A stretch of 39,554 nt of DNA, taken from positions 1 to 39,554 of IMG/VR virus record IMGVR_UViG_3300028625_000003. One strand, written 5' to 3'. Below, piece by piece: positions 15,685 to 39,212 of the stretch; the first letter of the stretch is position 1, and every line of letters starts with the position of its first letter. The stretch comes from a virus. The notes under the pieces are model-generated. The model was not told the DNA's origin. It saw nothing but the letters and a program-made list of their open reading frames with translations, and searched no databases. The position numbers and the translations under genes are program-made.

Positions 15685-15687
15685 CTC

Positions 15688-17974: not shown

Positions 17975-17990
17975 CCCATACCAACCGAGC

Positions 17991-18022
17991 GGTGGGGGCC
18001 GGGCCCGCGCCTGGCCCCCACC
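17991..18022 (+). other. perfect 10-bp GC stem-loop directly after the major capsid gene
   Basis: GGTGGGGGCC (17991-18000) pairs with GGCCCCCACC (18013-18022); no U-tract. Confidence 0.6.
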
Positions 18023-18034
18023 ACCGAGGACCCG

Positions 18035-18235: not shown

Positions 18236-18236
18236 G

Positions 18237-19159: not shown

Positions 19160-19160
19160 C

Positions 19161-19658: not shown

Positions 19659-19671
19659 CAGGGGGCAAGCT

Positions 19672-20658: not shown

Positions 20659-20659
20659 T

Positions 20660-21757: not shown

Positions 21758-21768
21758 GGGGGACCGGT

Positions 21769-22140: not shown

Positions 22141-22397
22141 TCCGCGATGCCGTGATCTTTGATCGGCGGGACGTTACCCCGGCCGGGCGCGAGGCCGACG
22201 AGTGGGACACGATCTGTAGGGCCGTCGATCTGCGCCAAGCCCAGACGCTCGTCGAGAAGGGCCTGGCGCCCTCCTACCAGGCCCTCGGGCTGCGCACGGC
22301 TGACGACCAGGTCCCGAACTGGCTGCTGCGCGCCCTGGCCTACATGGACGCGGTGACCGAAGAAGCCCTGTGGGATCGCGGGAAACCTACACCATGA
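21769..22397 (+). CDS. tail assembly chaperone frameshift product (gpGT-like), -1 shift at 22116-22122
   Basis: The -1 frame is open from 22122 to TGA 22395-22397 (ORF 22152..22397). That stop overlaps the ATG of the tape measure gene. Confidence 0.6.
22115..22122 (+). other. programmed -1 ribosomal frameshift slippery site (A AAA AAA)
   Basis: gcg gaa aaa aaa gga in the zero frame: an A8 run in the canonical G/GT position. Confidence 0.65.
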
Positions 22398-24487: not shown

Positions 24488-24499
24488 CGGGGGGAATCC

Positions 24500-25903: not shown

Positions 25904-27513
25904 GCGACAAAGACACCCGCCTGGCCGCGACGGTCTTCGACCGCAGCTTCGCCGCCGCTCCCGGGTTTCCTCCTGTCGAGCTGGTGGTGCAGGGCTTCAG
26001 CGTGGACTTGTTCGGAGCGGTCGAAGCCCAGATCGACGCGCAGGGCGATCTGCTGTCCTTGTGGGAGCTGTTCCGCTGGCTGCGCGCCCACGTCGAGCTG
26101 GACGCGGACCGCCCGGAAGCGGCCTTCGTCGGCTTCATCAACTCGGTGACGGTGCACACGGGGAGGGCCGCCTACACGGCGACCCTCTCGCGGGTCTTCA
26201 ACAAGGTCTACGTCGTCTACAGCGAGATCGCGGGGGGGACGCAGACGACGCCGCAGAAGACGACGGCGGCGTCGGATACGGAGAGCCAGGCGATCTACGG
26301 GATCAAGGAAGGGATCGCCACGCTCAACGATTCGACCGCGGAAGCCGCGGAGGCCTACCGGGACAGCCTGATCACCGGGGACGCCGCCCAAAGCTGGCCG
26401 CGCCTGGACCCGGAACAGGGCAGCATGGACAGCACGCCGGCGGCTGAGATCACCCTGCGGGGCTACTGGGACACCCTCGCTCTCTGGCGGTATTTCGGCC
26501 GGCCGCCGGCCCAGGAAGCCTACGACGTCGAGCCGCCCACGGTGGCCGACAAGCAGCGCTTCGGAGACGACACGGACAGGGCCGGCGTCGCGCAATCGTT
26601 CACCCTGACGGCCGGCGAGGACTTTAACCTGGCCAGCGTGTCGTTCTACATCCAGAAGGTTTCCCCTTCCGGGGGGGCGTGGCCGGTTGGCAATGACGTC
26701 GTCGTCGAGGTCTGCCCGGACGACGGGGCCGGAGATCCGGACTTCATGTCCCCAATCGAGTCCATTACGCTCCTGGCGAGCGACATCACCCCACAGCTCG
26801 TCAAGGTGACGGTGATCTTTTCGAACACGAACCCTCTTTCGGCGACGGCGCCCCTCGACTACTGGCTCGTTCTGGGGCACACCGGCGCGGACGACCCCGA
26901 TCACTACTACTTCGTCGGGACGCCCGAAGCGGCCGGCCATCCGGGGAAATTCCGCATCTACGACAGCGTCGCGGGAACGTGGTCGGCCCGCGTTCCGGAC
27001 GCCGACCTGTCCTTCGTGATCGGGGGGACCATCGAGACGACGACCCTGATCGCCGGCGTGGTTTCCGGCGTCGGGCAGTTCTTTGCCGGGACGTCCATCC
27101 TGACGGCTGGCGGGATCTATCAGAGCGCGTACCGCAACGGGGACGACCTGGCGGGGGACGTGATCGTCGATCTCCTGAACGTCAGGACGGCGGCCGGGGA
27201 GCGGCTGACGGCCCGTGTCGACAAGGACCGCTACCTCGTCGTCGACACGACCCCGGCCTTCGACAAGGACGAGCTGGCCTTCTTCGTGGGAGCGGGCGGC
27301 CTCTTGTACGACAAGGCCGGCGAGCTCGTCCCCGCGCACGTCTGTCCCGTGGGCCAGTGGATCGGCTTTCTCGACTTGCCGGACGGATTCGAGGACAGCA
27401 GCCTCGTCAAGTTCGGGCCGTTCCTGGCGGAGCGTGGCGAGTACCGTGTTGGGGAAGGCTGGCGCGTCTATCGCGCCGATCCCCTCGACGCCTTCTCGAC
27501 CGGCATGGGGTAA
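25900..27513 (+). CDS. tail tip / baseplate-like minor tail protein
   Basis: Inside ORF 25402..27513; GTG 25900 overlaps the preceding TGA (GTGA). Confidence 0.5.
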   Translation: MSDKDTRLAATVFDRSFAAAPGFPPVELVVQGFSVDLFGAVEAQIDAQGDLLSLWELFRWLRAHVELDADRPEAAFVGFINSVTVHTGRAAYTATLSRVFNKVYVVYSEIAGGTQTTPQKTTAASDTESQAIYGIKEGIATLNDSTAEAAEAYRDSLITGDAAQSWPRLDPEQGSMDSTPAAEITLRGYWDTLALWRYFGRPPAQEAYDVEPPTVADKQRFGDDTDRAGVAQSFTLTAGEDFNLASVSFYIQKVSPSGGAWPVGNDVVVEVCPDDGAGDPDFMSPIESITLLASDITPQLVKVTVIFSNTNPLSATAPLDYWLVLGHTGADDPDHYYFVGTPEAAGHPGKFRIYDSVAGTWSARVPDADLSFVIGGTIETTTLIAGVVSGVGQFFAGTSILTAGGIYQSAYRNGDDLAGDVIVDLLNVRTAAGERLTARVDKDRYLVVDTTPAFDKDELAFFVGAGGLLYDKAGELVPAHVCPVGQWIGFLDLPDGFEDSSLVKFGPFLAERGEYRVGEGWRVYRADPLDAFSTGMG

Positions 27514-27516
27514 ACC

Positions 27517-29079
27517 ATGAAAAACACGAAACAGACGCGCACCCAATGGCCCTTGATTCAGCGCCGGATCGGCGCGACCGCGGCCGCCTCGCCCGTATCG
27601 TCGGAGCACGATCCCGTGTCTCTCTCGACGGAGCTTGCCGACGTCTTGTCGGTTGGGGCCACCCAGGAACTCGACCTGGACACGCAAGTCAAGAACAAGG
27701 TCTTGGCCGGGCCATCCGCCGGCGCGGACGCGAAGCCCGCGTTCCGGCTCCTGGTCGCCGACGACATACCATCCCCGGGCCTGCATGCCGCCGTGACCCT
27801 GGCCGCCAGCGCGACGCCGATTCTCGGCCTGACCGGGCAAGATGTCTCCTTCGACGACCAGGATGCCGCGACTGTCCTGGCAGGCCCGGCGCCAGGCTAC
27901 CCATCCGCTGCCCCTGCCTTTCGGTCGCTCGTTTATCAGGACTTCTGGACGCTGCTGCCCGGCTGTAAACCGGCGATGACTCCGTATACGGCCACGATAG
28001 AAAACCCGTGCCTCATTGTCGATGCCTCGGCGGGCAACGTTGTCATCCAGCTCGACGCTGGCATGCCGAACGGGGCCATCGTCGCCATTGTGAAGTCGGA
28101 CGGGAGCACTTACACGGTCACCTTCACCGGGACTGGCGGGGACACCGTTTTGGGGAACGTTACGCTGGACAAACAGTATACGGCCGTGATGTTCCAGCAT
28201 TATAGCAGTGGCTGGCATCCTCTCGGTACTTTCAAGCTCGTCGCCGACCACGACCTGATCGCCAAGCACACCTACACTGGCGGCTCTGCGCTGGACGTGG
28301 TTGGCCTCTCCGCGGCCAGCACGCCGGCGCTGCTGACGCCCTCGGCGAACCCCGGCGCGGCCAGCGCCATCCTCAAGAGTGACGCCGCGGGCAAGGTGCA
28401 GCTCGTGGCGATGGGGATCAACAATGCCGTCCCCGCCGCGGCCGGCGACGTCCACGCCGGGGCCGACATCCGGGCGGCCGGGGGATGCTACCTCGGGGGC
28501 GTCGGCGCCGATCCACCGGCCGGCGCTCTCCAGACGACGGATTACGTTGCTGCCGGCGGCGGCGTCCACGTGGGCGAGACGACCGACCCGGGGGACGACG
28601 TGCTGGCCATTTCCTCCTATTCTCTGCGTCGTGTTGTCGTCAAGACGGGCCTATCTGACAATGTTGCCACCGCCGTCTTCACCATCACCACCACCAATGA
28701 GGCCGGCGACACGGACGGGGGCGGTTTTTACTGTCACGTGCGGGCCCTGGTAGGGCATGGAATAGCCAATAACGCGGCGAATGACGCGGCAATGGCCTAT
28801 CAGGGGGCCTTTGTGCGAGCAGCGCTGAATACGGGGGCGGGAGGAAACTCGACGGTGGTGGACCTGGTCAACTCCACCACCCTGCGCGCCGCGACAAATG
28901 CCCTGGCTCGCCAGATCGACAGGATAACGATGACTGTCACGGAAACCAGCGAGTACGTGCAGACAGTGAACTTCACAGTTGACTTGTCAGGAGCGTCCGT
29001 GGGAACTGCCGAGGTGATTGCCGAGGTCGAGCTGATCTGGTATGGGTATCTAACCGCTCCCATCATCGCGGCGGCCTAG
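27517..29079 (+). CDS. tail fibre protein
   Basis: ORF track 27517..29079. An N-terminal tail-fibre anchor motif occurs twice: VLAGPSAGADAKPAFRLLVADDIP and VLAGPAPGYPSAAPAFRSLVYQDF. Confidence 0.7.
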   Translation: MKNTKQTRTQWPLIQRRIGATAAASPVSSEHDPVSLSTELADVLSVGATQELDLDTQVKNKVLAGPSAGADAKPAFRLLVADDIPSPGLHAAVTLAASATPILGLTGQDVSFDDQDAATVLAGPAPGYPSAAPAFRSLVYQDFWTLLPGCKPAMTPYTATIENPCLIVDASAGNVVIQLDAGMPNGAIVAIVKSDGSTYTVTFTGTGGDTVLGNVTLDKQYTAVMFQHYSSGWHPLGTFKLVADHDLIAKHTYTGGSALDVVGLSAASTPALLTPSANPGAASAILKSDAAGKVQLVAMGINNAVPAAAGDVHAGADIRAAGGCYLGGVGADPPAGALQTTDYVAAGGGVHVGETTDPGDDVLAISSYSLRRVVVKTGLSDNVATAVFTITTTNEAGDTDGGGFYCHVRALVGHGIANNAANDAAMAYQGAFVRAALNTGAGGNSTVVDLVNSTTLRAATNALARQIDRITMTVTETSEYVQTVNFTVDLSGASVGTAEVIAEVELIWYGYLTAPIIAAA

Positions 29080-29283
29080 ATCTAGAGGAGATGATCGGGC
29101 ATTGGAGACAGGCCGCCGGGCTGGGCGATCGGTGAGCGCTACGAGTAGGACCAACCACCGGGGCATTTTCATGCGCGTGTCCGACCTCCTCAGGCTGCCG
29201 CCGGCGCTGTTGGCTGGAGACCGGCGGCCAAGGCAACCTGTATAGTGCCCGGCAAGATGCGTGTGTCCATCGACTACTCCGGC

Positions 29284-29315
29284 GTTGTTTCGTCTGGTTT
29301 CCCAGCCGTAACAAC
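29284..29315 (-). promoter_or_regulatory. conserved GAAA-tetraloop hairpin element, copy B
   Basis: Minus strand reads GTTGTTACGGCTGG-GAAA-CCAGACGAAACAAC. Starts 5 nt after the TAA of gene 29321..30124. Confidence 0.65.
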
Positions 29316-29320
29316 ACGCT

Positions 29321-30124
29321 TTATGTGCCTGCCCCCTTTGCCTGGGCTGCCTGGGCTGCCCGGCTGGGCTGGGTGGGTGGGCCGTGTTCGAGTAAAATCG
29401 CCGGTATGTTGACATATTGCCAGTAGCTTTGAATGGACCGCAGCGCCTCCTCGAGGTCCGCGGCAAAGCGCCCGCAGCCCCCGGGGCCCCGGTCTACGAC
29501 CAGGCGCAGCGGGGCCGTGGTCAGGACCTGGAGCACCGCGTCGTACCACTGCCGCTCCCGGCTCGTCGGGCCCGCCTGGTCGTCCACCCAGTTCGAGCGC
29601 GCCAGGCCCACGGCTTTCTGGCGGGGATCGCAGCCCTGCTGCTCGGTGTAGGCCCAGGCCACCTTGACGAAGTCGGCGACGGCCGTTTGCGCGCGCACAC
29701 GCGGCCCATTCAGCCCGTGGATGGGGATATCGCCCCGCGCGGGGGCGGGCCCGGCCGGCTGGTAGCGGTTTGTGCGCGGGCGGCCCGGCTCGCCGATGTA
29801 GCCGTCGTGATTGAGGTCGATGCCCAGCTCGTCCTCCAGCGCCCAACGCCGTAGCCGCTCCTCCGTCGCCTGTTGTTCCTGCAGCCGCGCCTGTGCCTCG
29901 GCCTGGCGCACCTCCGCGCTACTGTGGGCCGCGTCGTGGACGGCCGTCAGCGCCGCGGTGACGGCGCCACAGAACCCGACGAGGCCGGCCAGGACGCCGG
30001 GGATCCCCAGCATCGCCGCGGCGACGGCGCGCAGATCCCCGCCGCCGGCGCGCAGGACCAGCACGGTGGCGGCACAAAGCAGGCCACTCAAACCCAACAG
30101 CAACAGGTGCGTCCAGATCTTCAT
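29321..30124 (-). CDS. membrane protein (2 N-terminal TM, coiled coil, DxNxDG-containing C-terminal domain), function unknown
   Basis: ORF track 29321..30124; ATGA overlap with the upstream small membrane gene. Confidence 0.65.
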   Translation of the reverse strand: MKIWTHLLLLGLSGLLCAATVLVLRAGGGDLRAVAAAMLGIPGVLAGLVGFCGAVTAALTAVHDAAHSSAEVRQAEAQARLQEQQATEERLRRWALEDELGIDLNHDGYIGEPGRPRTNRYQPAGPAPARGDIPIHGLNGPRVRAQTAVADFVKVAWAYTEQQGCDPRQKAVGLARSNWVDDQAGPTSRERQWYDAVLQVLTTAPLRLVVDRGPGGCGRFAADLEEALRSIQSYWQYVNIPAILLEHGPPTQPSRAAQAAQAKGAGT

Positions 30125-30306
30125 CGTGCCACCACCAGCCAGAGAATGACCACCAGCGCGATCAGCACCGCCGCGGCCAGGAGGAGGATGGCGTCGACGC
30201 GCCCCTGGCCGCGCGTGCGGCGGTGCCGGCCGAGCACGCCGAGGACCAGGGCCAGGAGGAGCGCCAGGAGCGAGCCGGAGAGCCAGTCCAGGAAGGTCAT
30301 AGCCAT
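30121..30306 (-). CDS. small 2-TM membrane protein (holin-like size and topology)
   Basis: ORF track 30121..30306. Confidence 0.55.
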   Translation of the reverse strand: MAMTFLDWLSGSLLALLLALVLGVLGRHRRTRGQGRVDAILLLAAAVLIALVVILWLVVAR

Positions 30307-30366
30307 TTCTCCAAAACCTTCACACCGCGTTCTACTTTTAGCCGCAAGCGTTCTGAAAACTGCCCC

Positions 30367-30403
30367 TTGACAATCTATCTAGATTCTGGTATAATCTAGA
30401 TAG
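30367..30403 (+). promoter_or_regulatory. perfect consensus sigma70 promoter with an overlapping 10-bp inverted-repeat operator
   Basis: TTGACA 30367-30372, 17-nt spacer, TGg, TATAAT 30390-30395. CTATCTAGAT (30375-30384) and ATCTAGATAG (30394-30403) are exact reverse complements. Confidence 0.8.
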
Positions 30404-30438
30404 TAAAGATGATTGAGCGCAAGCAAGGAGGAGAACCG

Positions 30439-30720
30439 ATGAATCAGAGCAAAGAACAGGCCCAGCAAGAGGCGCGGCAGATGCGGGATAGCAAGGGCGG
30501 TGGCCCGGTTCAAATCCGCTGGATCGATGAGGATGGTGTGGGGCTGGTCTTTTTCGATGCGGCCCCCTGGGAGCTGCGGGTCGAGTGGGCCGTAGCCCCC
30601 CGCGAGCACCACCAATTAAGCCGGGCCGAACAGGCCGCCCTGTTGCGTGCCCAGCCCGATGATATGGCCCGCCACTGGAGCATTCAGGAAGAAGAGCTGT
30701 ACCGCGAATTCTATGGATAA
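30439..30720 (+). CDS. small acidic hypothetical protein (93 aa)
   Basis: Inside ORF 30409..30720; ATG 30439 lies 6 nt after AAGGAGGAG. Confidence 0.65.
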   Translation: MNQSKEQAQQEARQMRDSKGGGPVQIRWIDEDGVGLVFFDAAPWELRVEWAVAPREHHQLSRAEQAALLRAQPDDMARHWSIQEEELYREFYG

Positions 30721-30736
30721 GAAAAGGAGGAACCCA

Positions 30737-31363
30737 ATGAGCAGCACAATCGGCCTGTACTTGGACATCTCGCAGGAAGCCGCGAACCAACTCCGGGACC
30801 GCCTCAACAGGCTGGCCTTTCGCCTGGGATACAGCGCCCGGCGTGGCCCCACTTACGGCGAGGGCAATCTCGCCGCCCTGCTCCAGGGCGTCGACGCTGG
30901 CGATTGCGAGATCGTCCGGCGCCGCTACTGGGCCCGCGACGACAACGACCTCTTTGATGGCCTGATCGGCTGGGCCAATATCTACCCGCCGTCCTCCGCG
31001 GTCGTGGCCGCGGCCCTGGCCGATGTGCCGGAGAAATACCGCGCCGCCATCGAGGGTGCATTTAGCGCCGGGGCTATGGACCTGCGGCCCGTGCCGCCGG
31101 GGGGCATGGCCTCCTGGGGCCGCGTGGACCGCTGGGCCATCGACCTGGCCGAGGACTGGAGCGCCGAATTCGGGCTGGCTATAGATGCCGATCTGTGGGC
31201 CGAGGACGAGTGCCACGACGCCGCATACAGCTTCGCCCTGGATGTCGCCACCGCCACCGACCAGGAACTGCAGGCCAGGCTGGCCGGCGACCCCACCGCG
31301 GGCCAGGGCACCGCCTGGGGCATCGACGAGGAGACGGACCGGGCATGGTACGCGGCCCGCTAG
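30737..31363 (+). CDS. acidic hypothetical protein (208 aa) with a possible N-terminal ribbon-helix-helix
   Basis: Inside ORF 30647..31363; ATG 30737 after AAAGGAGGAA. N-terminus TIGLYLDISQEAANQLRDRLNRLAFRLG...NLAALLQGV. Confidence 0.65.
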   Translation: MSSTIGLYLDISQEAANQLRDRLNRLAFRLGYSARRGPTYGEGNLAALLQGVDAGDCEIVRRRYWARDDNDLFDGLIGWANIYPPSSAVVAAALADVPEKYRAAIEGAFSAGAMDLRPVPPGGMASWGRVDRWAIDLAEDWSAEFGLAIDADLWAEDECHDAAYSFALDVATATDQELQARLAGDPTAGQGTAWGIDEETDRAWYAAR

Positions 31364-31375
31364 TCGCCGTCCCTC

Positions 31376-31411
31376 AAGCCCCTGCCCCCCGCGGGCGGGG
31401 GCTTTGCTTTG
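31376..31411 (+). terminator. intrinsic terminator closing the two-gene plus-strand cassette
   Basis: GCCCC(T)GCCC...GGGC(G)GGGGC forms a ~10-12-bp GC stem followed by TTTGCTTTG. Confidence 0.7.
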
Positions 31412-31416
31412 CCGCA

Positions 31417-31752
31417 TCATCTCCCCTCCTCCCCCGCGAGCAGTTGCCGCCACGCGCTGCGGCTCTCCGGCAGCGGCAGCTCTAGCCCCAGGCACAGCAC
31501 CGCCAGCGCCCGTGCGTACCATTGGCAGTAAGCCACGTCGCGGCCGGCCAGTTGCACCGTGAGACACAGCGATTCGCACAGCGGCAGGAGTCGATCGGCG
31601 GCGAAAACGGCGTTGCGGTTCAGCGCCCGCATGAGGTGGCCCAGGCTAGTATTGAACGGGTGCGCGGTGTCGTCCGGGGCCGGGCCGGCCGCGATAAGGA
31701 CAAGGGCGCGGGCATTGAGCATGTCGCAGGAGATGAGGTATTCGTGGGTCAT
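31417..31752 (-). CDS. hypothetical protein (111 aa)
   Basis: ORF track 31417..31752; ATGA overlap with the upstream gene. Confidence 0.55.
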   Translation of the reverse strand: MTHEYLISCDMLNARALVLIAAGPAPDDTAHPFNTSLGHLMRALNRNAVFAADRLLPLCESLCLTVQLAGRDVAYCQWYARALAVLCLGLELPLPESRSAWRQLLAGEEGR

Positions 31753-31958
31753 CTCCCCCCCCTGGCCCTCGCCACGGCGTACAGCACGCCCCCGACCACC
31801 ACGGCCGCGACGACGACCACGGCGAGATAGAACAGCGGCGAGATCTCCGTTCCGGGCTGCGGCTCCGGTACCGCGGCCATGACCTGCGCCTCGAGCCGCG
31901 GCATGTAGACCAGGGCGGCGATGCCCACGGCGGCGAGCAGTAGGGCGATGGCGATCAT
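31749..31958 (-). CDS. small 2-TM membrane protein (69 aa)
   Basis: Inside ORF 31749..32051; ATG 31958 after AGGAGG. Confidence 0.55.
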   Translation of the reverse strand: MIAIALLLAAVGIAALVYMPRLEAQVMAAVPEPQPGTEISPLFYLAVVVVAAVVVGGVLYAVARARGGR

Positions 31959-32563
31959 TGCGCCTCCTGTGCTTGGCTCACGGCGGCACGTGCGCGGCAT
32001 TGCCGCAGGTGCGCGGCGTACTGCGGCTGGCTCTCGCAGGTGCGGCCGCACAGCGGGCAGTCATACCGCTTGTGCCCGTTGCCGGGTGCGGGGTGCGGTT
32101 CCGTTTCCTCGGCACTTTCGCGCAACTCCGCAGGTTTCGTAACACGCGCGGGCGCAGGAGGCGCCGGCTTTACGGCGGGCCGCGCATCCATCCGGCGGAA
32201 ATACGCCAGGGCGACAATGAGCGCGGGAATCGGCAGCGCCAGTGCCCAGTCGCCGCCGTAGTAGCGGAGGTGGTACGCCCCGGAAATCACCGTCAGGCCG
32301 GCCGCGACGAACCAGCGTACGGCGTATTGCCGCCAGTCGGAGCGGCTGTAGCGGGCGGCGATATTGACGGCGCGATAGTGGCCCAGGTCGACCAGTACCC
32401 CCAGGGGCAGGGCGACGAACCAGGGATCGACCGCGCTCAGGATGGCGATATAGTGCGCGGCGGACACGATCACCAGGAGCGGTACGAGGTCGCCGTCTTC
32501 GAACCAGCGCACGAGCCAGCGGGCCGCGGCGGCAATCCAGGCGAGCGGGCGGCGGGCGGTCAT
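31955..32563 (-). CDS. polytopic membrane protein with a C-terminal cytoplasmic zinc-finger (CPLCGRTCESQPQYAAHLRQC)
   Basis: Inside ORF 31955..32707; ATG 32563 after GGAGG. About 4 hydrophobic helices. Confidence 0.6.
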   Translation of the reverse strand: MTARRPLAWIAAAARWLVRWFEDGDLVPLLVIVSAAHYIAILSAVDPWFVALPLGVLVDLGHYRAVNIAARYSRSDWRQYAVRWFVAAGLTVISGAYHLRYYGGDWALALPIPALIVALAYFRRMDARPAVKPAPPAPARVTKPAELRESAEETEPHPAPGNGHKRYDCPLCGRTCESQPQYAAHLRQCRARAAVSQAQEAQ

Positions 32564-32817
32564 TTCGCAGCCTCCATCTCTGCCACGATGCGCGGCACGT
32601 CGCACTTGTCGATATCCCCGCAGCATGTAGTCAGCTCCCCCGGTAGGCTGCGGCACGCGCCATAGCTGCCGTTGTAGGCCGGGGTGCGGCCGCAATAGAA
32701 CGGGCAATAGTCGTCCATCAGAAAGCGGTGGGCCAGCGCCTCTTTGCTCACAATCGGCATAGTGCGGCGGATAAAATCCCCGTCGTGATAGTCGATGAAC
32801 GTATACGTCTCAGTCAT
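32560..32817 (-). CDS. Cys-rich small protein (85 aa)
   Basis: Inside ORF 32560..33186; ATG 32817 after GGAGGAGGAG. Confidence 0.6.
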   Translation of the reverse strand: MTETYTFIDYHDGDFIRRTMPIVSKEALAHRFLMDDYCPFYCGRTPAYNGSYGACRSLPGELTTCCGDIDKCDVPRIVAEMEAAK

Positions 32818-33440
32818 CACTCCTCCTCCCCCGCGAGTGCATCCAGGCGGGCGGCCCAGGCGCGGGCGGCGGCGCGTTCCGTGCGTTTCAGCGGGCGCGC
32901 GCCAGCAGCCCGCAACAGCCCCGCCGCGTCCGGCGGGAACGTGGCCCGGAGGCGGGCGAGTTCTTCGCCCAGCTCCCCGGCGAGGTCGGCCTGGGCCATT
33001 GCTACGCCCTGGGCATCTCGCCATAAGCGACGGTACAACCTGGCAACATGCTTCCACCGCGCGGCCCACCGGCGGGAAACGGCGAGGGCGTCCCGGCAGG
33101 CGGCCCAACTCAGGTCCTGGGCCGTCACGAGGACACGCAGGCGTTCGTTTTCGGCGGCGAGGCGGTCGCGTTCCCAGGCGTTGCAACTAGCCCTCCCCCG
33201 CGCCTCCTCTTCCTCTTTCCGCAAGCGGTCTCCTTCATGCGCGGCGTTCTGCCAGTTGACCCGGCGCAACTCCGATTCCTTCCGCAGCCGCTCCACCTCG
33301 GCGGCGAGGCGGTCGCGTTCCACTAGCAACGCAGCGATACGATTGTTCAGTTCGCACCGTTCCGGCGTGCCATCGAATACTAGCGGCGGGTCGAATTGAA
33401 CGTTGAGCAGGCATCCATCGGTGGGCATTTCGTCGTCCAT
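32817..33440 (-). CDS. coiled-coil protein (207 aa)
   Basis: Inside ORF 32817..33656; ATG 33440 after AAGGAGGAATGAC. Confidence 0.6.
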   Translation of the reverse strand: MDDEMPTDGCLLNVQFDPPLVFDGTPERCELNNRIAALLVERDRLAAEVERLRKESELRRVNWQNAAHEGDRLRKEEEEARGRASCNAWERDRLAAENERLRVLVTAQDLSWAACRDALAVSRRWAARWKHVARLYRRLWRDAQGVAMAQADLAGELGEELARLRATFPPDAAGLLRAAGARPLKRTERAAARAWAARLDALAGEEE

Positions 33441-33441
33441 G

Positions 33442-33723
33442 TCATTCCTCCTTGCTCTCCAATGCCCGCAGCTCTCGCGCCGCCGCCGCCAGTTGCAGGG
33501 CGTGGTTGTTGTCCCCGTCCGCCGCCAGCGCAATGGCGAGCGAGTCCAGCAGGTCGGGGTCCAGGTGCGCCAGGACGCGGCGACAGGCGTCGCGGTCGGC
33601 GGCGATGCTCTTGGCCTCTTGCGCCAGTCCCGCGATGTAATCCGCCAATTTGCCAATCATCTCTGTTTCGCCGGCAATGGCCTTTGCCGCTTCTTGGGCA
33701 AATCTGTCAAAGGCACTCATCAT
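33442..33723 (-). CDS. hypothetical helical protein (about 92 aa)
   Basis: ORF track 33442..33723. Tandem ATGs at 33723 and 33720 after AAGGAGGA. Confidence 0.6.
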   Translation of the reverse strand: MMSAFDRFAQEAAKAIAGETEMIGKLADYIAGLAQEAKSIAADRDACRRVLAHLDPDLLDSLAIALAADGDNNHALQLAAAARELRALESKEE

Positions 33724-33734
33724 TCCTCCTTGTC

Positions 33735-34157
33735 TCAGTGGAAACCCACGTCCTGGCCCGCCTCGTGCGCCTCCCGCAGCCCGTTGATAAACTGCTGCGT
33801 TTTCGCCCGCCAGTTGCCGATGTGTCCGGGATCGTCGCCGTCGGGCAGGAGTGGCAGTAGTTCGGCCAGGCGGTCAGCCAGCGGGCCGCAGTATATGGCA
33901 GGAATCCACCCGTCACAATCGGAATGATCCAACAGCACATGGAGCACATCGGGCCGCAGGGCATCCCATTTGATAGGCAGGCATTGATACCATTCCTGGT
34001 CCTCGCAGCCCGCAAACGCATAATGATGGCCCATCGGAAAAAAACCTTCCATCAAATCCAATGGGGGCAACCCGGCAACCTCCGCCAACTTTTTCCGCCA
34101 GCGCATAAAGGCACTGTAGGCTCCGTGCCAGCAATCGTGCGACGTATCGAGTCCCAT
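33735..34157 (-). CDS. hypothetical protein (140 aa, His/Cys/Trp-rich)
   Basis: Inside ORF 33735..34370; ATG 34157 after AAGGAGGACTGAT. Confidence 0.6.
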   Translation of the reverse strand: MGLDTSHDCWHGAYSAFMRWRKKLAEVAGLPPLDLMEGFFPMGHHYAFAGCEDQEWYQCLPIKWDALRPDVLHVLLDHSDCDGWIPAIYCGPLADRLAELLPLLPDGDDPGHIGNWRAKTQQFINGLREAHEAGQDVGFH

Positions 34158-34158
34158 A

Positions 34159-34407
34159 TCAGTCCTCCTTGTCTCGATAGCATTCCGCACTACAGCGGCA
34201 GTCACCCGGCCGCACAACCTGCATCGGCGCCCCGCAGCGGGGGCAGGTCGCGGGCCAGGTGGAGCCAAAGCCGTCGCTGACCGTGGCGAGCCGGCTGCGG
34301 TAGTCGGAGCATCCGGCCGGCCCGATGCAACGGGCGCCGGTGAATGTGCAACAGCCGATAGAGCCGTCACCCAGGCCGTACCACGAAAAGCATTCCATAG
34401 GATTCAT
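34159..34407 (-). CDS. Cys-rich zinc-ribbon protein (82 aa)
   Basis: Inside ORF 34159..34431. Cys pattern CPRCGAPM...CRCSAEC. Confidence 0.55.
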   Translation of the reverse strand: MNPMECFSWYGLGDGSIGCCTFTGARCIGPAGCSDYRSRLATVSDGFGSTWPATCPRCGAPMQVVRPGDCRCSAECYRDKED

Positions 34408-34802
34408 CGCCCATGCTCCTGTTGATGGCACTCCTCACAGTACGTTACCAAGTCCCGCTTCCTCTCGGGCAGCCGCAGCGCGTACCACCACCATTTTCGG
34501 TACGTCCCCGGCAGGTGATGCGCCTCCATATGCCACTCTTCATCGGCCCGGCATCGCTGGCAGGTCCACCCGTCGCGCCGCTTCACCTGCCAGGACAGCC
34601 GATGCCAGCGGCGGCTGTTCAGGTAGCGGCGGTACCAGAACCACCAGTCGCCCCAGCGCGCGTTCACCGGCCAGGCCAACACGACCGCCGCCCCGGCCAG
34701 GACGACCAGGCCGGCGACCAGCCCGGGCTGCAGCCGGGTGGTGAGCCAGCCGGCCAGGCCGGCGGCCAGGAGAGTGAGGACACCGAGCAGGATCCTACGC
34801 AT
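34404..34802 (-). CDS. HNH endonuclease domain preceded by two N-terminal transmembrane helices
   Basis: Inside ORF 34404..35057; ATG 34802 after GGAGG. TM segments ILLGVLTLLAAGLAGWL and GLVAGLVVLAGAAVVLAW. HNH core WTCQRCRA...MEAHHL...LVTYCEECHQQEH. Confidence 0.7.
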   Translation of the reverse strand: MRRILLGVLTLLAAGLAGWLTTRLQPGLVAGLVVLAGAAVVLAWPVNARWGDWWFWYRRYLNSRRWHRLSWQVKRRDGWTCQRCRADEEWHMEAHHLPGTYRKWWWYALRLPERKRDLVTYCEECHQQEHGR

Positions 34803-35079
34803 CGGCGGCCTCCAGCATTGTTTCGTCTGGTTTCCCAGATGCAACAACGCGCTCCTGGTACGCCGCCAGCAGTTGCTGGCCGGCGCGGAAGAAATCGCCG
34901 CCGGTGGTCTGGACCGCGGCGCGGACCTGGTCGCGGGTAGCCACCAGGCAGCGCTTGAATTCAACCTCGCCGATCGGCAGTCGGCAATAGTAGTCGCCGG
35001 CGATGAGCAGGACCGCCGTGGCCACGTTGTAGTAGCAAAGTTCCAAGGCCCGCGCAAACGTCAACGGTCTATCGCGCAT
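34795..35079 (-). CDS. hypothetical protein (94 aa)
   Basis: Inside ORF 34795..35310; ATG 35079 after GGAGGGGG. Confidence 0.55.
   Translation of the reverse strand: MRDRPLTFARALELCYYNVATAVLLIAGDYYCRLPIGEVEFKRCLVATRDQVRAAVQTTGGDFFRAGQQLLAAYQERVVASGKPDETMLEAADA
34817..34848 (-). promoter_or_regulatory. conserved GAAA-tetraloop hairpin element, copy C
   Basis: Minus strand reads GTTGTTGCATCTGG-GAAA-CCAGACGAAACAAT. Ends 14 nt before ATG 34802 with GGAGG in between. Confidence 0.65.
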
Positions 35080-35897
35080 CACGCCCCCTCCGTTGTTCCG
35101 TCTGGTTTCCCACCCGCACCAACCCACCCCACCTTTTCCCGCCAGGCGGCGAGTGCAGCCGCGCAGCCCTCGGGGGGCGGATAGTCCCAGCGTACGGCGT
35201 CGCGCAATACATACCGCGCGATGCGTTCGCAGATTGTGCCCAAATCTGGAATGCGAGCGATCTTGTCGCTGCGATCGGCGTGGTACCCAGGATTGCCGGC
35301 CATGTGCCACAGCACGGCCCGCATGGCCCCCAGGTCCTGGGCCCGCAGCGCCCGGGCCAGCTCCTGCACGGTCGCCTCGCGCAGTTTCCGGGCCTCCTCT
35401 TTCCGCTGCTCCTCAGCCGCCGCCCGCTCCGCCGCCCGCTCCGCCGTTGCCTTCTCCCGGCAGGAGGAGCAGAGGAAGTCGCGGTGGTCGATGGTCCCCT
35501 CGTAGGGGGCAAAGTCGCTCGCCGGCTTGGACTGGTCGCAGCGCGTGCACGTCTTGCGCGGTTCCGGCGGGGACGGCGGCGCGGCCGCGGCCTTTTTCGC
35601 GGCGTGATGCCGGCGCACCGCGGTCACGCGATGCTGCTTCCCACACTCCCGGCAGAAGAGCTGGCGGCCCCCGACGTTGCCCCGGGCGAGGTTCTTGCTG
35701 AATTCAGTGATAGGCTTGACCACGCCGCACTCCACACAGCGGCGGGTCTCCTCTCCCAGCACCTCGACGGCCTCTACCGGGGGAGCGGGCTCGACAGGCG
35801 CATAGTCGGCGCATCCCGAGCAGGCCTGGGGCGTGGGGAGAACGTTGCGGCGGTCGCAGTTCCGGCCATGGCGGTGGCGGCAATCGGCGCTGGCCAT
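35079..35897 (-). CDS. Cys-rich protein with two CxxC-(22-24 aa)-CxxC zinc-ribbon repeats and a helical C-terminal domain (regulator candidate)
   Basis: Part of ORF 35079..36554. ATG 35897, with GTG 35762 as an alternative start. Repeats CVECGVVKPITEF...CRECG and CTRCDQSKPASDF...CSSC. Confidence 0.55.
   Translation of the reverse strand: MASADCRHRHGRNCDRRNVLPTPQACSGCADYAPVEPAPPVEAVEVLGEETRRCVECGVVKPITEFSKNLARGNVGGRQLFCRECGKQHRVTAVRRHHAAKKAAAAPPSPPEPRKTCTRCDQSKPASDFAPYEGTIDHRDFLCSSCREKATAERAAERAAAEEQRKEEARKLREATVQELARALRAQDLGAMRAVLWHMAGNPGYHADRSDKIARIPDLGTICERIARYVLRDAVRWDYPPPEGCAAALAAWREKVGWVGAGGKPDGTTEGA
35092..35123 (-). promoter_or_regulatory. conserved GAAA-tetraloop hairpin element, copy D
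   Basis: Minus strand reads GTTGGTGCGGGTGG-GAAA-CCAGACGGAACAAC. Ends 12 nt before ATG 35079 with GGAGGGGG in between. Confidence 0.6.
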
Positions 35898-36361
35898 CTG
35901 GCTGGCCAGGAGGTGAGCCGGGACGAGGAAATCGACGGCCCGAGCACCAGCGTCCCCGTCACCCACCCGTCCTGGACCAGCCCCGGGATCTCCAACGCCA
36001 GGGGCCAGGGGATCTCCCCGGCGATCTGCAGCTCCTGGATCCGCGGGAGGTCCTCCGGGTGCGCATAGTCGCAGACCCGCACCCGCCAGCTCTGGCTCCC
36101 GATACGGAGCGTCCCCGTCCGGTTGCGGTCCGTCCGGTACCAGGTCGCCACGCACCATTCCCCCGGGGCCGGCCGAACGTTCTGCCGGGCCGCGATCCCG
36201 CACTTCTCCGTCGCCGGACAGGTCCAGTCTCCCCAGGTCGGCCCGTATAGCACGATCTTGCCCGTCCTCTGCTCTGTCCAGGAGGGCATTGACCCGGACG
36301 TGGTCGTCGTAGGTGGGGAAGAGATCCCCAGCACCAGGGCGATCAGTAGATCGATCAGCAT
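35774..36361 (-). CDS. secreted/anchored RlpA- or 3D-like double-psi beta-barrel protein (candidate peptidoglycan lytic enzyme)
   Basis: ORF track 35774..36361. N-terminal signal-anchor MLIDLLIALVLGISS. GKIVLYGPTWGD...WRVRVCDYAHPEDLPR...GWVTGTLVL is loosely RlpA-like by eye. The last ~40 codons overlap the next gene. Confidence 0.5.
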   Translation of the reverse strand: MLIDLLIALVLGISSPPTTTTSGSMPSWTEQRTGKIVLYGPTWGDWTCPATEKCGIAARQNVRPAPGEWCVATWYRTDRNRTGTLRIGSQSWRVRVCDYAHPEDLPRIQELQIAGEIPWPLALEIPGLVQDGWVTGTLVLGPSISSSRLTSWPARWPAPIAATAMAGTATAATFSPRPRPARDAPTMRLSSPLPR

Positions 36362-36464
36362 GGTGATACTCCTCGAGCAGCTGCACCAGCCGCGCGTTTG
36401 CTCTCGTCAATTGCTCGTTCTGGCGGAGCAGGGATTGCACGAAAAGGGTCTCGGTATGGTTCAT
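36362..36464 (-). CDS. short coding-looking ORF (MNHTETLFVQSLLRQNEQLTRANARLVQLLEEYHH...) with no stop codon of its own
   Basis: ATG 36464 overlaps the upstream TGA (TGATG). The frame stays open down to 35079 (ORF 35079..36554). Confidence 0.3.
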
Positions 36465-36583
36465 CAGCTCAACTCCTTGGCGGATTCCTTGGTAAACGTC
36501 ACCCGCGGCACCTTGTTCAGGGCCTTGCGCCGGGCGGCGAGATGGCGCAAGCATGCGGCACAGACGACGGAGATGTGCACCAT
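36464..36583 (-). CDS. 39-aa basic peptide (MVHISVVCAACLRHLAARRKALNKVPRVTFTKESAKELS)
   Basis: ATG 36583 lies 7 nt after the AAGGAG at the end of dnaB; inside ORF 36464..36763. Confidence 0.4.
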   Translation of the reverse strand: MVHISVVCAACLRHLAARRKALNKVPRVTFTKESAKELS

Positions 36584-36587
36584 CGGG

Positions 36588-37865
36588 TCACTCCTTGAAC
36601 CGGAAACGCGGGCCGTCGAAGAAGAGGGTCCCCTCTCCCAGGGGGCCATTTCTATTCTTGGCGATGGCCCAGTTGACGATGTCGAAGCCGGCCGAGGTGG
36701 CTTTCTGGCCCTTGGCGTCCAGCTCGTTCCACAGAAACACGACCGTGTGGGCGTCCTGTTCATACTGCCCCGACTCCCGCAGGGAGCGCAGCGTGGGACG
36801 CTCGCCTTCGCCGTGCAGCCGATTGAGCTGGGAGACGGCGACCAGCGGCACCCGCAGCTCCATCGCCAGGCGCTTCAGGCCCTTCGAGATGTTCGTGTTC
36901 TGCTCCACCAGGCTCTTGCCGCCGGCGTCCATGATCTGCACGTAGTCGACGACCACCAGGTCCAGGGAGCTCCCCGCCTGCCGGCGGAGGGCCTCCGCCC
37001 GGAGAGCCTCCGCGTCGAACGGCCCGGGCAGAAAGGCCACCGCGCCCGGCCACGCCTCCACTTCGCCCAGGCGGCCGGCCACGCGGGCCTTGCCGTCCTC
37101 GGACAGCAAAGCCAACTCGCACGCGTCGTCCCAGCCAAGCCCGGCCAGCCGGCACAGCCGCCGGCGGTAGAGATCGTCGGGGGGCATTTCCAGGGTGGCA
37201 AACAGGACCTGCCGGCCGTCCTGGGCATTATGGTCGGCCAGCATCTCGGCCAGGGCGGTTTTCCCCACCCCCGGCCTGCCGGCCAGGATCAGGAAGGCGC
37301 CGGGCCGCAGCATGATCCGGGCGTCCAGGGAGGGGACGCCGAAGCGCGGCCGCGGGGCTTGCCGGTCGACCCGCATCTCCTCCAGCAGGGCGCTGGCGAC
37401 GGCTTTGCTCTCGACGGCGCCGCCGCTCGCGACACCTTGCTCCTCCCGCAGGGTTTTCAGCGCCTGGGCGAACGGGTCGCCGGCGGTGTAGGCCAGGGAG
37501 CCTAGCGTTGCGAGCGTGCCCAGGTACCGGCGGGCCCGCGCCGCGTGGGCCACCTGCGTGGCGTAATACTCGGCGTGCACCGGCACGGGCGCGGCGTCGA
37601 CCAGGGCGCCGAGCGCCGCGGGCCCGCCCACCTCGTCCAGCTGCCCGCGCGCCTCGAGTTCGCCGGCCAGCGTGGCCAGGTCACACGGGACCTGGCGCTC
37701 CAGGAGGGCAAGAGCCGCCTCGTAGATCGCGCGCCGGCGGGAATCGTAGAAGTCGGCGGGCCGCAGCAGCGGGCTGACGAACAGAATCACGTCCCGGTGG
37801 GTCAAGAGGCACCCCAACACGGCCCGCTCCGCCTCGTCGGCTCGCGGCAGATCGTTACGCGCCAC
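36588..37865 (-). CDS. dnaB: replicative DNA helicase (DnaB family)
   Basis: Inside ORF 36588..38117; GTG 37865 after GGAGGAGG. N-domain AERAVLGCLL, Walker A GRPGVGKTALA, Walker B LVVVDYVQ. Confidence 0.85.
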   Translation of the reverse strand: MARNDLPRADEAERAVLGCLLTHRDVILFVSPLLRPADFYDSRRRAIYEAALALLERQVPCDLATLAGELEARGQLDEVGGPAALGALVDAAPVPVHAEYYATQVAHAARARRYLGTLATLGSLAYTAGDPFAQALKTLREEQGVASGGAVESKAVASALLEEMRVDRQAPRPRFGVPSLDARIMLRPGAFLILAGRPGVGKTALAEMLADHNAQDGRQVLFATLEMPPDDLYRRRLCRLAGLGWDDACELALLSEDGKARVAGRLGEVEAWPGAVAFLPGPFDAEALRAEALRRQAGSSLDLVVVDYVQIMDAGGKSLVEQNTNISKGLKRLAMELRVPLVAVSQLNRLHGEGERPTLRSLRESGQYEQDAHTVVFLWNELDAKGQKATSAGFDIVNWAIAKNRNGPLGEGTLFFDGPRFRFKE

Positions 37866-38682
37866 GGCGTTCCTCCTCCGCGCGCAGCGCGGCCGCCCGG
37901 GCCTCCAGGGCCGCCCGGCGCGCCGCCCCGCCGCCTTCGTCTTCGCTGCCGGAGCCGACCACGTGTCCCTCGCGCTGCCAGCGCTCCAGAATTTTCCGCG
38001 CATAGCTCCAGTTGCGGGCATTGTGCGCCACGGCCTCCAGGATGGCGTCGTGGATCCACCACGGCGGGTACTCCCGCGCCGCTTCCTCCAGAAGCTGGGC
38101 GTCCAGGGGCCCGGCAATCCCGAAAGCCGCCGCGTAGTCGGCGCAGACGCTCTCGAACGTCACGGCGGCGCCGGCGGCAGGCGCTCCTGCTCCTGCTCCG
38201 CCTCCGGTTCCATTTCCGTCTCCCAACTCCCCGCTCCTGCTCCTACTCCTGGCCGCAGATTGCGGCAGTCTGCCGCAGTCTGCGGCAGTCTGCGGCAGCT
38301 CGTCTTTCCACGTGCGCACCCGATCCTGCCACCCGGGAGGCGCCGGGTATTTGCTCGGATAGGCGCGCCGTTGCCCGTCATTCCATGTCCACCAGGATAG
38401 GAACTGCAGAAGCTCCGTGCCGTCGTCGGCGGTATAGGCGCAAATCATCCCCACGGCGGCCATGCGCTCCACGGCAGAAGCGATACTCGTGAGGGTGATC
38501 TTGTCGACCAGCGGGAAAACCTGCGCTTTGATCCAGCGCGGATCGTTCAACATGCGCCCCTGGTCGTCGCCCCAGGGGATCAGCCACGTGGCCACCAGGA
38601 TCGCCGAAGGGTCCTCCAGGTCGGCCATGCTCCGGGATACGCTGATGCTGCGATGCAGAACGCGCCCGTCTTTGCTGGGCAT
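37855..38682 (-). CDS. replication initiator / replisome organiser with a DnaD-like C-terminal domain
   Basis: ORF track 37855..38682. C-terminus YAAAFGIAGPLDAQLLEEAAREYPPWWIHDAILEAVAHNARNWSYARKILERWQREG fits the DnaD/DnaB_2 pattern. Sits immediately upstream of the helicase. Confidence 0.7.
   Translation of the reverse strand: MPSKDGRVLHRSISVSRSMADLEDPSAILVATWLIPWGDDQGRMLNDPRWIKAQVFPLVDKITLTSIASAVERMAAVGMICAYTADDGTELLQFLSWWTWNDGQRRAYPSKYPAPPGWQDRVRTWKDELPQTAADCGRLPQSAARSRSRSGELGDGNGTGGGAGAGAPAAGAAVTFESVCADYAAAFGIAGPLDAQLLEEAAREYPPWWIHDAILEAVAHNARNWSYARKILERWQREGHVVGSGSEDEGGGAARRAALEARAAALRAEEERRGA
38251..38300. repeat. five tandem 10-bp repeats TGC(G/C)GCAGTC (iteron-like), inside the linker of the initiator gene
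   Basis: ggccgcagat tgcggcagtc tgccgcagtc tgcggcagtc tgcggcagct. Adjacent hexamer repeats (CTCCTG/CTCCGC) lie at about 38170-38250. Confidence 0.8.
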
Positions 38683-38685
38683 GTT

Positions 38686-39048
38686 TTACTCCTTGGCGGT
38701 GGGGACCAGGCGTCCCCGCTCGTCCCGCCCATTGGCCACCCGCGCCAATCCCCCGGCGCGATGCCAGGCCCGCTTGTCCCCGGCGGTGGCCACGCGGTAG
38801 CCCTTCCGGCCCCAGGCTGCGAGCAGCCGGTGGACTTCCGCCGCGCCGAACATCCGGACGCGCTCGGTATAGCGGGCCCGCGTCCAGGCCGCATAGTGCC
38901 CCTGCTCCCGGTGCCAGTCGTTGTGGCATTGGCTGTGGCAGGGCACCGTCTCTCCGGCCGGATCGCCGCCGTCGACGCGAGGTACCAGGTGATGGTGGTG
39001 GAGTTCGTCGGGCGAGATCTCGCGGTGACAGAAGAAACAGGTGGTCAC
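38686..39048 (-). CDS. HNH endonuclease
   Basis: ORF track 38686..39048; GTG after GGAGGG. CFFCHREISPDELHHHHLVPRVDGG...VPCHSQCHNDWH. Confidence 0.8.
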   Translation of the reverse strand: MTTCFFCHREISPDELHHHHLVPRVDGGDPAGETVPCHSQCHNDWHREQGHYAAWTRARYTERVRMFGAAEVHRLLAAWGRKGYRVATAGDKRAWHRAGGLARVANGRDERGRLVPTAKE

Positions 39049-39212
39049 GGTACCCTCCGGCGGCCGGCCATACTGCGGAGCAGCTGGTCTAGGCAGCAGA
39101 TCACGTCCCAGCGGTGCAGGCGATGGCTGCCGCAGCGGGGGCAGAGGGACGGGCGGATGTAATAGGCGATATCGCCGGGGCCATAGGTCGTACCGCAGTG
39201 GGGACAGAACAT
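39045..39212 (-). CDS. zinc-ribbon protein (55 aa)
   Basis: Inside ORF 39045..39233; ATG 39212 overlaps the stop of the DUF5131 gene. MFCPHCG...CPRCG. Confidence 0.55.
   Translation of the reverse strand: MFCPHCGTTYGPGDIAYYIRPSLCPRCGSHRLHRWDVICCLDQLLRSMAGRRRVP

Follow-up and report, generated by a model that had tools for sequence, protein, structure and literature searches.

The window analysed here is the whole of the virus record IMGVR_UViG_3300028625_000003 (39,554 nt), a complete, circularly permuted phage-like genome in which a 32-base hairpin-forming element occurs in four copies (A to D), all in the sense orientation and all at gene junctions (Table 1). The element consists of an imperfect, relatively A/T-rich inverted repeat with a 4-nt loop and an A-rich 3' arm, followed by a GGAG Shine-Dalgarno (SD) sequence. 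A model-made reading of the letters alone, hereafter the sequence-only reading, had listed the four copies, and their coordinates and sequences were confirmed; the pattern TGGGAAACCAGRCGRAACA with up to 3 mismatches hits these four window sites and no others, against 0.03 expected from shuffles, a count of 4 being reached by 0 of 100 shuffles. No fifth copy was returned by a covariance model run over the whole window with filters off, in which the four copies score 46-52 bits and the next, unrelated match 13.6 bits. With the terminal overlap set aside, the four copies form the top repeat family of the genome. Our recount also bore out the earlier pairing counts (12/12 in A, about 12/14 in B and C, and 10/14 in D) and the spacers of 13, 14 and 12 nt between copies B, C and D, respectively, and the next ATG, with GGAG in between. 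The proposed link to gene starts is above chance, given that the probability for at least two of four random sites to lie no more than 15 nt 5' of a called start is P = 9e-4, and that for at least three of four sites to lie within 40 nt of a called start is P = 1e-4.

The gene map was taken from the gene calls attached to identical or near-identical contigs. The starts after C and D are called start codons on this map, and both copies sit inside the 3' ends of upstream coding sequences (CDSs), as the sequence-only reading had it, except that the CDS holding D is the 227-aa gene (35079-35762) and not a 491-aa open reading frame (ORF). Copy A had been placed in an untranslated leader, but a 24-codon ORF reads through it, and the TGA of this ORF overlaps the ATG of the methyltransferase gene (TGATG). 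At A, C and D, and also at the copies of three relatives described below (L062, L126 and L014), an ORF passes through the element, with its stop codon overlapping or adjacent to the following ATG (TGATG, ATGCGTAG/ATGCGTAA, ATGA). For copy B, the 13-nt spacer to an ATG behind an SD was correctly described, but this ATG opens only an uncalled ORF of 26 codons; B lies in a 241-nt gap between convergent units, with no gene called between it and the convergent late gene, and lies at the edge of a four-gene accessory block. The downstream genes named by the sequence-only reading, a membrane-anchored HNH nuclease after C and a DNA methyltransferase after A, correspond to the HNH-like endonuclease and the methyltransferase fusion of Table 1.

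Hairpin energies range from -7 to -13 kcal/mol for all copies except A. Behind the copies there is a second local hairpin, which takes in both SD and AUG at C, the SD at the L126 copy, and the AUG but not the SD at D; an SD or AUG held in a local hairpin is usual for coupled genes. Among 61 genes, those following C and D have the most A-rich -32 to -13 regions, and A-rich or ACA tracts just 5' of the SD are seen in other genes of the same phage too. As an observation of its own at the B junction, a heptamer A_AAG_GGG (X_XXY_YYZ in the zero frame) is located at 29328-29334 on the minus strand, 3 codons before the stop of the 267-aa gene, and with a -1 shift at this point reading would continue across B as ...KRVVTAGKPDETTPE followed by a stop, the same tail as at the L062 copy. 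We set aside -1 frameshifting at this heptamer (product ending ...GKPDETTPE), which lacks support and has too long a spacer (17 nt) toward the hairpin.

Table 1. Positions of the element copies, of the genes beside them and of other features (window coordinates unless another genome is given)
Feature	Position	Strand	Details
Copy A	6787..6818	+	CTTGTTCCGTCTGG-GAAA-CCAGGCGGAACAGC; perfect 13-bp hairpin, -22.5 kcal/mol, then CTTGTTTGTG
Copy B	29284..29315	-	GTTGTTACGGCTGG-GAAA-CCAGACGAAACAAC, then GCCGGAG; 5 nt past stop of 267-aa gene
Copy C	34817..34848	-	GTTGTTGCATCTGG-GAAA-CCAGACGAAACAAT, then GCTGGAGGCCGCCG-ATG; within last codons of 94-aa gene
Copy D	35092..35123	-	GTTGGTGCGGGTGG-GAAA-CCAGACGGAACAAC, then GGAGGGGGCGTG-ATG; within last codons of 227-aa gene
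L062 copy	L062:7558-7589		TTTGTTACACCTGG-CAAT-CCAGACGAAACAAC, then GCCGGAGGCCGCCG-ATG; 29.8 bits, E 2e-6
L126 copy	L126:2890-2921		CTTGTTGCGCCTGG-ATTA-CCAGACATAGCAAC, then GCCGAAGGAGGAGTG-ATG; 20.2 bits, E 3e-4
L014 copy (tentative)	small ORF after DnaB		TTGCCGGAGTTGG-AAAA-CCAAGTGTAGCAA; identical 30-nt geometry; weak, 12 bits, E 1.3
24-codon upstream ORF (MKRPCSVWETRRNSLFVDNPSRRH, then stop)	6777..6851	+	own SD GGAGGGGG; putative, uncalled by gene finders
N6/N4 DNA methyltransferase with fused Mrr-like / NACHT-associated inactive restriction-endonuclease domain	6851..8323	+	downstream of A
267-aa gene, no family match	29321..30124	-	last called gene of two-gene leftward unit; B follows
HNH-like endonuclease, 132 aa	34404..34802	-	hydrophobic N-terminus; downstream of C and of L062 copy
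94-aa ORFan gene	34795..35079	-	lies between D and C; distance from start to start 275 bp
Lar-like / endonuclease VII-like zinc-ribbon protein, 227 aa	35079..35762	-	tail ...AAWREKVGWVGAGGKPDGTTEGA, then stop; contains D
cro-like gene, 68 aa	5334-5540	-	gene call
Immunity-type switch, AT-rich	5541-5774		between cro-like (-) and CI-like (+) genes; three GGGCCTAT/ATAGGCCC repeats
Promoter-like site TTGACT-17-TATACT	5575-5603		within immunity region
CI-like HTH_3 gene, 123 aa	5775-6146	+	gene call; faces cro-like gene
Leftward early operon, ~13 kb	5540 through window ends to 31417	-	includes DnaD-like initiator and DnaB helicase
Rightward late operon	9027-29079	+	small terminase, capsid and tail genes
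Four-gene accessory block	29321-31363		plus-strand genes of 93 and 208 aa; minus-strand genes of 59 and 267 aa

Diverged copies were found in three relatives, in each case 3' of the DnaB gene. The copies in L062 and L126 are confident, while that in L014, whose DnaB is 50% identical to that of the window, was found via a structure-aware search and is treated as tentative. L062 is syntenic with the window at 72-79% nucleotide identity and carries a single copy directly before its HNH homologue. The DnaB of L126 is only 43% identical to the window's, and its copy lies within the last codons of a 69-aa ORF right after DnaB that ends ...AAWREGVGW..., comparable to AAWREKVGW before D and WRERVGF before the L062 copy. 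Because the conserved upstream peptide AAWRE.VGW anchors this copy independently, its homology does not rest on structure alone. Both confident copies share the 12-14-nt spacing toward the ATG with GGAG in between. No copy was found in L013 and L019 (DnaB 60-66% identical), nor in L059, L060 and L061. Exact-pattern scans of IMG/VR, GTDB genomes and metagenomes returned only the window phage and apparently chance single matches, IMG/VR searches anchored on proteins gave no match, whether started from the 491-aa ORF, from the 267-aa protein or from an alignment of HNH sequences, and a viral pattern scan recovered only the L014 site already known plus unrelated sequences.

Comparison of these copies separates what is kept from what drifts. 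The loop is always 4 nt long and differs in each lineage (GAAA in the window, CAAU in L062, AUUA in L126, AAAA in L014), so that the GAAA loop highlighted by the sequence-only reading is constant within the window genome but a GNRA-type loop is not a feature of the family; stem positions 1, 7 and 10 are unconserved as well. By contrast, outer stem positions 2-4 and 6 (UUG.U/A.CAA) and inner stem positions 12-14 (UGG/CCA) are conserved, with the inner CUGG/CCAG and outer UUGUU/AACAA stems kept across relatives. The best-conserved part is the 3' arm with the SD. The L062 3' arm matches that of B at 14/14 positions, or 21/21 nt when GCCGGAG is included, and from the 3' arm through the start codon it matches C at 33/35 nt by our own count on the alignment, against about 72% in the HNH coding DNA beside it. 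Of the 11 codons across the element, 7-9 end in A or T in each of the copies read in frame, against a G+C content at third codon positions (GC3) of 0.84-0.91, and the rare codons AAA, CCA and ACA (24%, 4.9% and 5% usage) are reused in C and D. Given that these A/T-ending codons stand in high-GC3 genomes, the constraint is on nucleotides, and the earlier claim of conservation at the nucleotide level is upheld by this codon choice. A protein-level C-terminal tag was rejected as the sole explanation, since A is read in another frame, B is outside a gene and rare codons are reused.

A further property of the copies, which the sequence-only reading had missed, is their relation to gene content. A single copy in L062 takes the place of the window's D, 94-aa ORFan and C, so that D and C are the exact boundaries of a one-gene indel between related phages. 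The upstream flank of the L062 copy matches the flank of D (74%, versus 59% for that of C), while its downstream flank matches the flank of C (GCYGGAGGCCGCCGATGCGTA). The 94-aa protein found no homologue except itself when searched against 5.8 billion clusters. Its tail (LLAAYQERVVASGKPDET) resembles the 227-aa tail (LAAWREKVGWVGAGGKPDGT) and looks like a diverged duplicate of it, and the tail ...AAWREKVGWVGAGGKPDGTTEGA of the 227-aa gene also ends three other upstream genes in relatives. The post-DnaB region (34368-35762; loci L017/L023, L032, L060, L061 and L065) is a hot spot of mosaicism among near-identical phages, with breakpoints at 35439 (L060, L061), 35153 (L065) and 33720 (L017). In the variant L065 an unrelated 347-aa gene body is joined 30 nt upstream of D; L032 and L065 both carry a 66-nt insertion in the HNH gene; L060 has extra genes, one with a PD-(D/E)XK-like motif by our reading, and L017 has a Lar-domain gene.

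Right behind DnaB, the relatives and the window share a small ORF in the same place, with 69 aa in L126 (L126:2728-2937), about 55 aa in L014 (L014:9318-9485) and 39 aa in the window (36464-36583). The L126 ORF combines the N-terminal M.HI... motif of the window's 39-aa ORF with the C-terminal AAWRE.VGW tail, which in the window ends the 227-aa gene; this arrangement suggests that genes were inserted into an ancestral small post-DnaB gene. The 491-aa ORF (35079-36554, minus strand) is probably not one gene. Gene finders place there a 195-aa gene in another frame (35774-36361, GC3 0.86) together with the 227-aa gene, yet sequences homologous to the N-terminal peptide MNHTETLFVQSLLRQNEQL of the ORF (from 36464) begin a 315-aa call in L062 and the L014 gene after the small ORF.

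We tentatively favor the reading that the element is a portable junction cassette of about 35-45 nt, specific to its lineage, which would couple and cap translation of the next gene and at the same time serve as a recombination joint. Its original setting would be the last codons of the small post-DnaB ORF, leading straight into the next gene, and the window phage would have gained copies at three more junctions. The hairpin would sit at about -45 to -13 of the downstream start on the polycistronic mRNA and restrict independent ribosome entry. It would be opened by ribosomes that reach the end of the upstream ORF, the stop of which overlaps the next ATG or lies against it, and the SD and A-rich tract would thereby become accessible. 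The downstream accessory gene (HNH nuclease, ORFan or methyltransferase) would in this way have its translation coupled to, and capped by, that of the upstream one, with the dedicated 24-codon leader ORF taking the upstream role at copy A. Copy A together with its leader ORF has a likeness to the synthetic bicistronic design. Because the element is repeated, it would double as a homology patch for gene gain and loss. In favor of this reading are the above-chance placement just 5' of an SD and start, the ORFs that run through the element, the hairpin geometry kept while the loop varies, the constraint on nucleotides, the local hairpins at SD or AUG, the A-rich tracts, and the indel bounded by D and C together with the L065 junction near D.

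Several points weigh against this reading of the element as a coupling cassette. The coupling mechanism is read from anatomy, the hairpin itself does not sequester the SD, and coupling at most other junctions of the window genome does without an element of this kind. Downstream of B no gene is called, and the copies A and L014 are 31-35 nt, not 12-14 nt, from the ATG. In the close variant L060, no copy lies immediately upstream of a homologue 38% identical to the 94-aa protein. The high identity of the 3' arm among copies could come from recent copying or gene conversion, not selection. As for the pairing, 81% of the cells are paired in the five confident copies and no compensatory change is found among them; four pairs change on both sides once L126 and L014 are added, the observed values being reached by 18-35 of 500 shuffles, but covariation emerges only after adding the tentative L014 copy, which itself came from a structure-aware search. 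Sense and antisense strands fold about equally well, and G-U and A-C departures are balanced at about 6 each by our tally of the alignment, which gives no sign of selection on the RNA strand. A hairpin or palindrome is plausibly under selection, with RNA and DNA being inseparable here.

If the palindrome matters as DNA, the inverted repeat or its asymmetric 14-bp half CCAGRCGRAACAAY would be bound by a phage DNA-binding, replication or recombination protein, and would regulate transcription through the junctions or mark sites of DNA transactions, like the extended start-associated sequences (ESAS) of mycobacteriophages or the stoperators of L5. Departures in one arm are uncompensated in the other among the confident copies, an observation used by Pope et al. 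to favor DNA binding for ESAS (PMC3203893), and one arm is nearer the consensus than the other, as in ESAS. The lack of strand bias in wobble pairs with about equal folding of both strands, the dispersal in one orientation at gene boundaries as for stoperators (PMC9283540), the position of the orthologous copies beside replication genes and the perfect palindrome of copy A, as for a highest-affinity site, point the same way. However, we consider a DNA site somewhat unlikely. In the immunity region another repeat, GGGCCTAT, occurs three times, and the element is missing there even as a half-site, isolated half-sites are missing elsewhere in the window, and no candidate binding protein was recognized in Pfam/PHROGs scans, which covered most, not all, window ORFs. 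Moreover, a 28-32-bp palindrome with an unconserved centre is long for a simple dimer operator, and the tight succession toward the SD would be left unexplained. A further reading, built on the main idea of the sequence-only reading, is that a trans-acting phage repressor or activator of translation binds the hairpin as RNA and co-regulates the nuclease and methylase genes: the hairpin abuts the SD, the primary sequence of the 3' arm is conserved beyond the needs of pairing, and the downstream genes encode potentially toxic DNA enzymes. Nevertheless, the loop, usually the key feature for recognition, differs per lineage (GAAA, CAAU, AUUA, AAAA), there is no G-U excess in the sense strand, and no RNA-binding protein was recognized among the ORFs scanned. 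The genes downstream of the orthologous copies also differ (a 94-aa ORFan, HNH, a membrane protein and a 195-aa homologue), so there is no stable regulon, and an RNA operator appears unlikely to us. We regard as improbable a role in punctuating the transcript, whether as a terminator, attenuator, processing site or 3'-end stabilizer between expression units. It draws on A, which at the end of the CI-like operon joins a perfect 13-bp stem to a U-rich tail (CTTGTTTGTG) and was flagged as an intrinsic terminator by a terminator scan, and on B, which lies 5 nt past the last stop of its unit and is the one convergent-gap hairpin kept in the centroid folds of both strands. A U-tract follows the hairpin at A only, however, and at none of B, C, D or the relatives' copies; C, D and the relatives' copies are inside a CDS 5' of its stop, where ending a transcript would generate non-stop mRNA, RNase III would need longer and less interrupted stems, and canonical terminators are used elsewhere in the genome (31384-31402 and 8688-8718).

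The remaining explanations concern how the copies arose or what they imitate. The 3' end of the small post-DnaB gene (...AAWRE.VGW...G-x-P-D...) and its junction might simply have been copied as a functionless by-product of recombination, which would fit with C, D, L062, L126 and L014 all being read in the same frame as G-x-P-[DS], with the likeness of the 94-aa and 227-aa tails, by which the duplication reaches 5' of the hairpin, and with copies bounding an indel. Such a passive origin is difficult to reconcile with A being in another frame and B outside a called gene, with the run of rare A/T-ending codons in every in-frame copy, or with arm complementarity being kept across lineages whose DnaB proteins are only 43-50% identical, and we give it as little credit as transcript punctuation. 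A slightly more doubtful proposal is a system for gene capture carried by the phage, with integron-like cassettes and without an integrase, for which the hairpin would be the recombination site. The endonuclease VII-like 227-aa protein or the HNH protein would then cut the extruded palindrome, and ORFan cassettes, each with its copy and SD, would be inserted and excised in a form ready for translation on arrival. Finally, the 32-nt hairpin ending ...GAAAC-AAC could be a solitary mimic of a CRISPR repeat, that is, an RNA anti-CRISPR titrating host Cas proteins, given that its length and GTTG...CAAC ends resemble CRISPR repeats. Screening with the exact 19-mer detected no array in 185,579 species genomes or in the metagenome collection, and the copies lie inside CDSs, differ among themselves and drift in loop and arms between relatives, which makes such a mimic highly improbable.

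Comparison with known element classes did not provide a name for the element. It was found not to be a repetitive extragenic palindromic (REP)-type host repeat scattered without bias toward gene starts, as the sequence-only reading had allowed for: no host repeat was detected and starts are favored. In one genome for each of 185,579 GTDB species the 19-mer had 11 single matches, in line with about 17 chance matches by our rough estimate, which leaves no REP-type repeat or uptake sequence, and a metagenome scan with the 19-mer gave the window phage and single matches only, with no multiple spaced matches. Rfam yielded nothing at gathering score in the whole window and nothing at E values up to 5 around each copy. 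Two mechanisms put forward by the sequence-only reading did not hold up. The first, a boxB/nut-like antitermination site, lacks a boxA, is not promoter-proximal and has an unconserved loop: boxA (CGCTCTTWA, at most 1 mismatch) has 4 matches against 7 expected by chance and none near any copy, the promoter-like site at 5575-5603 is far from C and D, which are deep in the ~13-kb leftward operon, and B belongs to a separate two-gene unit. The other, an RNase III signal, would require about 20 bp (two turns) of largely continuous double-stranded RNA, versus 10-14 positions with 0-4 mismatches here. A promoter (sigma-70, sigma-54, extracytoplasmic function or phage RNA polymerase) was rejected for having no fitting hexamers and a start that would fall inside the downstream gene. 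The outer TGTTCC...GGAACA is parS-like, but the centre differs and no ParB or ParA was recognized among the ORFs scanned, arguing against a ParB/parS centromere. The hairpin of a diversity-generating retroelement was dismissed with no reverse-transcriptase match among the ORFs scanned and no template/variable repeat pair. An integron attC site was likewise rejected, with no integrase recognized in the Pfam/PHROGs scans of most window ORFs; by inspection, the GTT...AAC order of the element is the reverse of that in attC, whose core sites read R''(RYYYAAC)...R'(GTTRRRY).

The closest analogues are two groups of repeated phage elements, SAS/ESAS and PeSL. The start-associated sequences (SAS) and ESAS of Cluster K mycobacteriophages, described by Pope et al. 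in 2011 (PMC3203893) and resurveyed in 2025 (PMC12699233), are imperfect inverted repeats with a short spacer placed immediately 5' of a block containing the SD and the start; they occur in several copies per genome, at non-structural genes only and nearly all in one orientation, with one arm nearer the consensus, uncompensated departures and a consensus that varies between sub-lineages. In architecture the window element agrees with ESAS: its arms, imperfectly matched and separated by a short spacer, immediately precede SD and start codon, all copies point the same way, and the genes concerned are non-structural. However, SAS is GGGATAGGAGCCC and the ESAS arms are 17 bp, unrelated to the window element in sequence; the phage group is another one and the host phylum probably so; and only 4 copies are present in the window, whereas a Cluster K genome has 11-19 SAS sites, of which about half come with an ESAS. 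Unlike ESAS/SAS, most copies of the window element are inside the 3' end of an upstream ORF, and copies bound a gene indel. The function of SAS/ESAS was still awaiting experimental verification in the 2025 survey (PMC12699233).

The PeSL (promoter early stem-loop) cassettes of T4-type phages reported by Arbiol et al. in 2010 (PMC2839356; PMC4122927) are short stem-loop regulatory motifs repeated at the borders of small ORFans in variable regions, and recombination among them inserts, deletes or replaces single genes, to which the bracketing by D and C of the 94-aa ORFan missing in L062 is similar. A PeSL, however, is an intergenic strong sigma-70 early promoter with a terminator stem-loop, whereas the window element has an SD and mostly overlaps CDSs, with no promoter-like hexamers in or beside any copy. 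As judged by sequence and composition, the element belongs to neither ESAS/SAS nor PeSL and is an analogue only. The stoperators of Cluster A mycobacteriophages, exemplified by those of L5 gp71 (PMC9283540, PMC6550527), are similar in being an asymmetric motif dispersed through both arms of a temperate genome, at gene boundaries and oriented with transcription. They are also the early-promoter operator bound by the immunity repressor, in contrast to the window, where the immunity region is without a copy or half-site, and they are non-palindromic, unlike the window element. Lambda boxB/nut, too, forms a small hairpin on an early transcript of a phage, its loop being A-rich and GNRA-like, but its stem is 5 bp versus 14 positions here, where no boxA is present.

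Catalogues of short repeats conserved at the starts of genes exist for a few phage groups (SAS/ESAS, PeSLs and stoperators), and the window element represents an independent example from a different phage lineage. It is tractable in that its diverged orthologues separate constrained parts (the stems, and the 3' arm with the SD) from the unconstrained loop, and in that two copies bracketing a single ORFan gene missing in a relative constitute a natural experiment. If the coupling model is true, the element would be a natural counterpart of the synthetic 'bicistronic design' for context-independent translation initiation, and a mechanism for plugging new genes into a GC-rich operon with immediate expression. 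If the alternative of a DNA-binding site is true instead, it would point to an unrecognized regulator.

The wider setting of the copies is that of a high-GC, uncultivated phage lineage (window G+C 67.6%) whose source metagenomes are wastewater and digester. An exact 127-nt terminal direct repeat (1-127 = 39428-39554) indicates a circular or terminally redundant genome of 39,427 bp, and contigs identical or at least 99% identical occur in several assemblies, one of them from an activated-sludge metagenome. A megablast search of INPHARED phages with the window found no close relative, and a search with the capsid protein gave no match above 38% identity. No integrase, ParA/B or protelomerase was recognized among the ORFs scanned. 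The methyltransferase gene has a GC3 of 0.76, low for this genome, and the 703-nt gap on its 3' side contains a strong terminator (8688-8718) and a promoter-like site (8898-8926) before the late genes begin; with its low GC3, long flanking gaps and own terminator it is a moron-like unit, and copy A lies at the 5' edge. The accessory block bordered by B has a promoter of perfect consensus (TTGACA-17-TATAAT at 30367-30395) and a terminator at 31384-31402; none of its four genes has a family match, and the block is missing from the relative L019. A 221-aa DUF5131 gene crosses the artificial window ends (39212..450, minus strand). Three tandem 42-nt (14-codon) repeats (CTTCGAC...GCCTTCG) are present at 16158-16288, inside a 352-aa gene just 5' of the major capsid gene.

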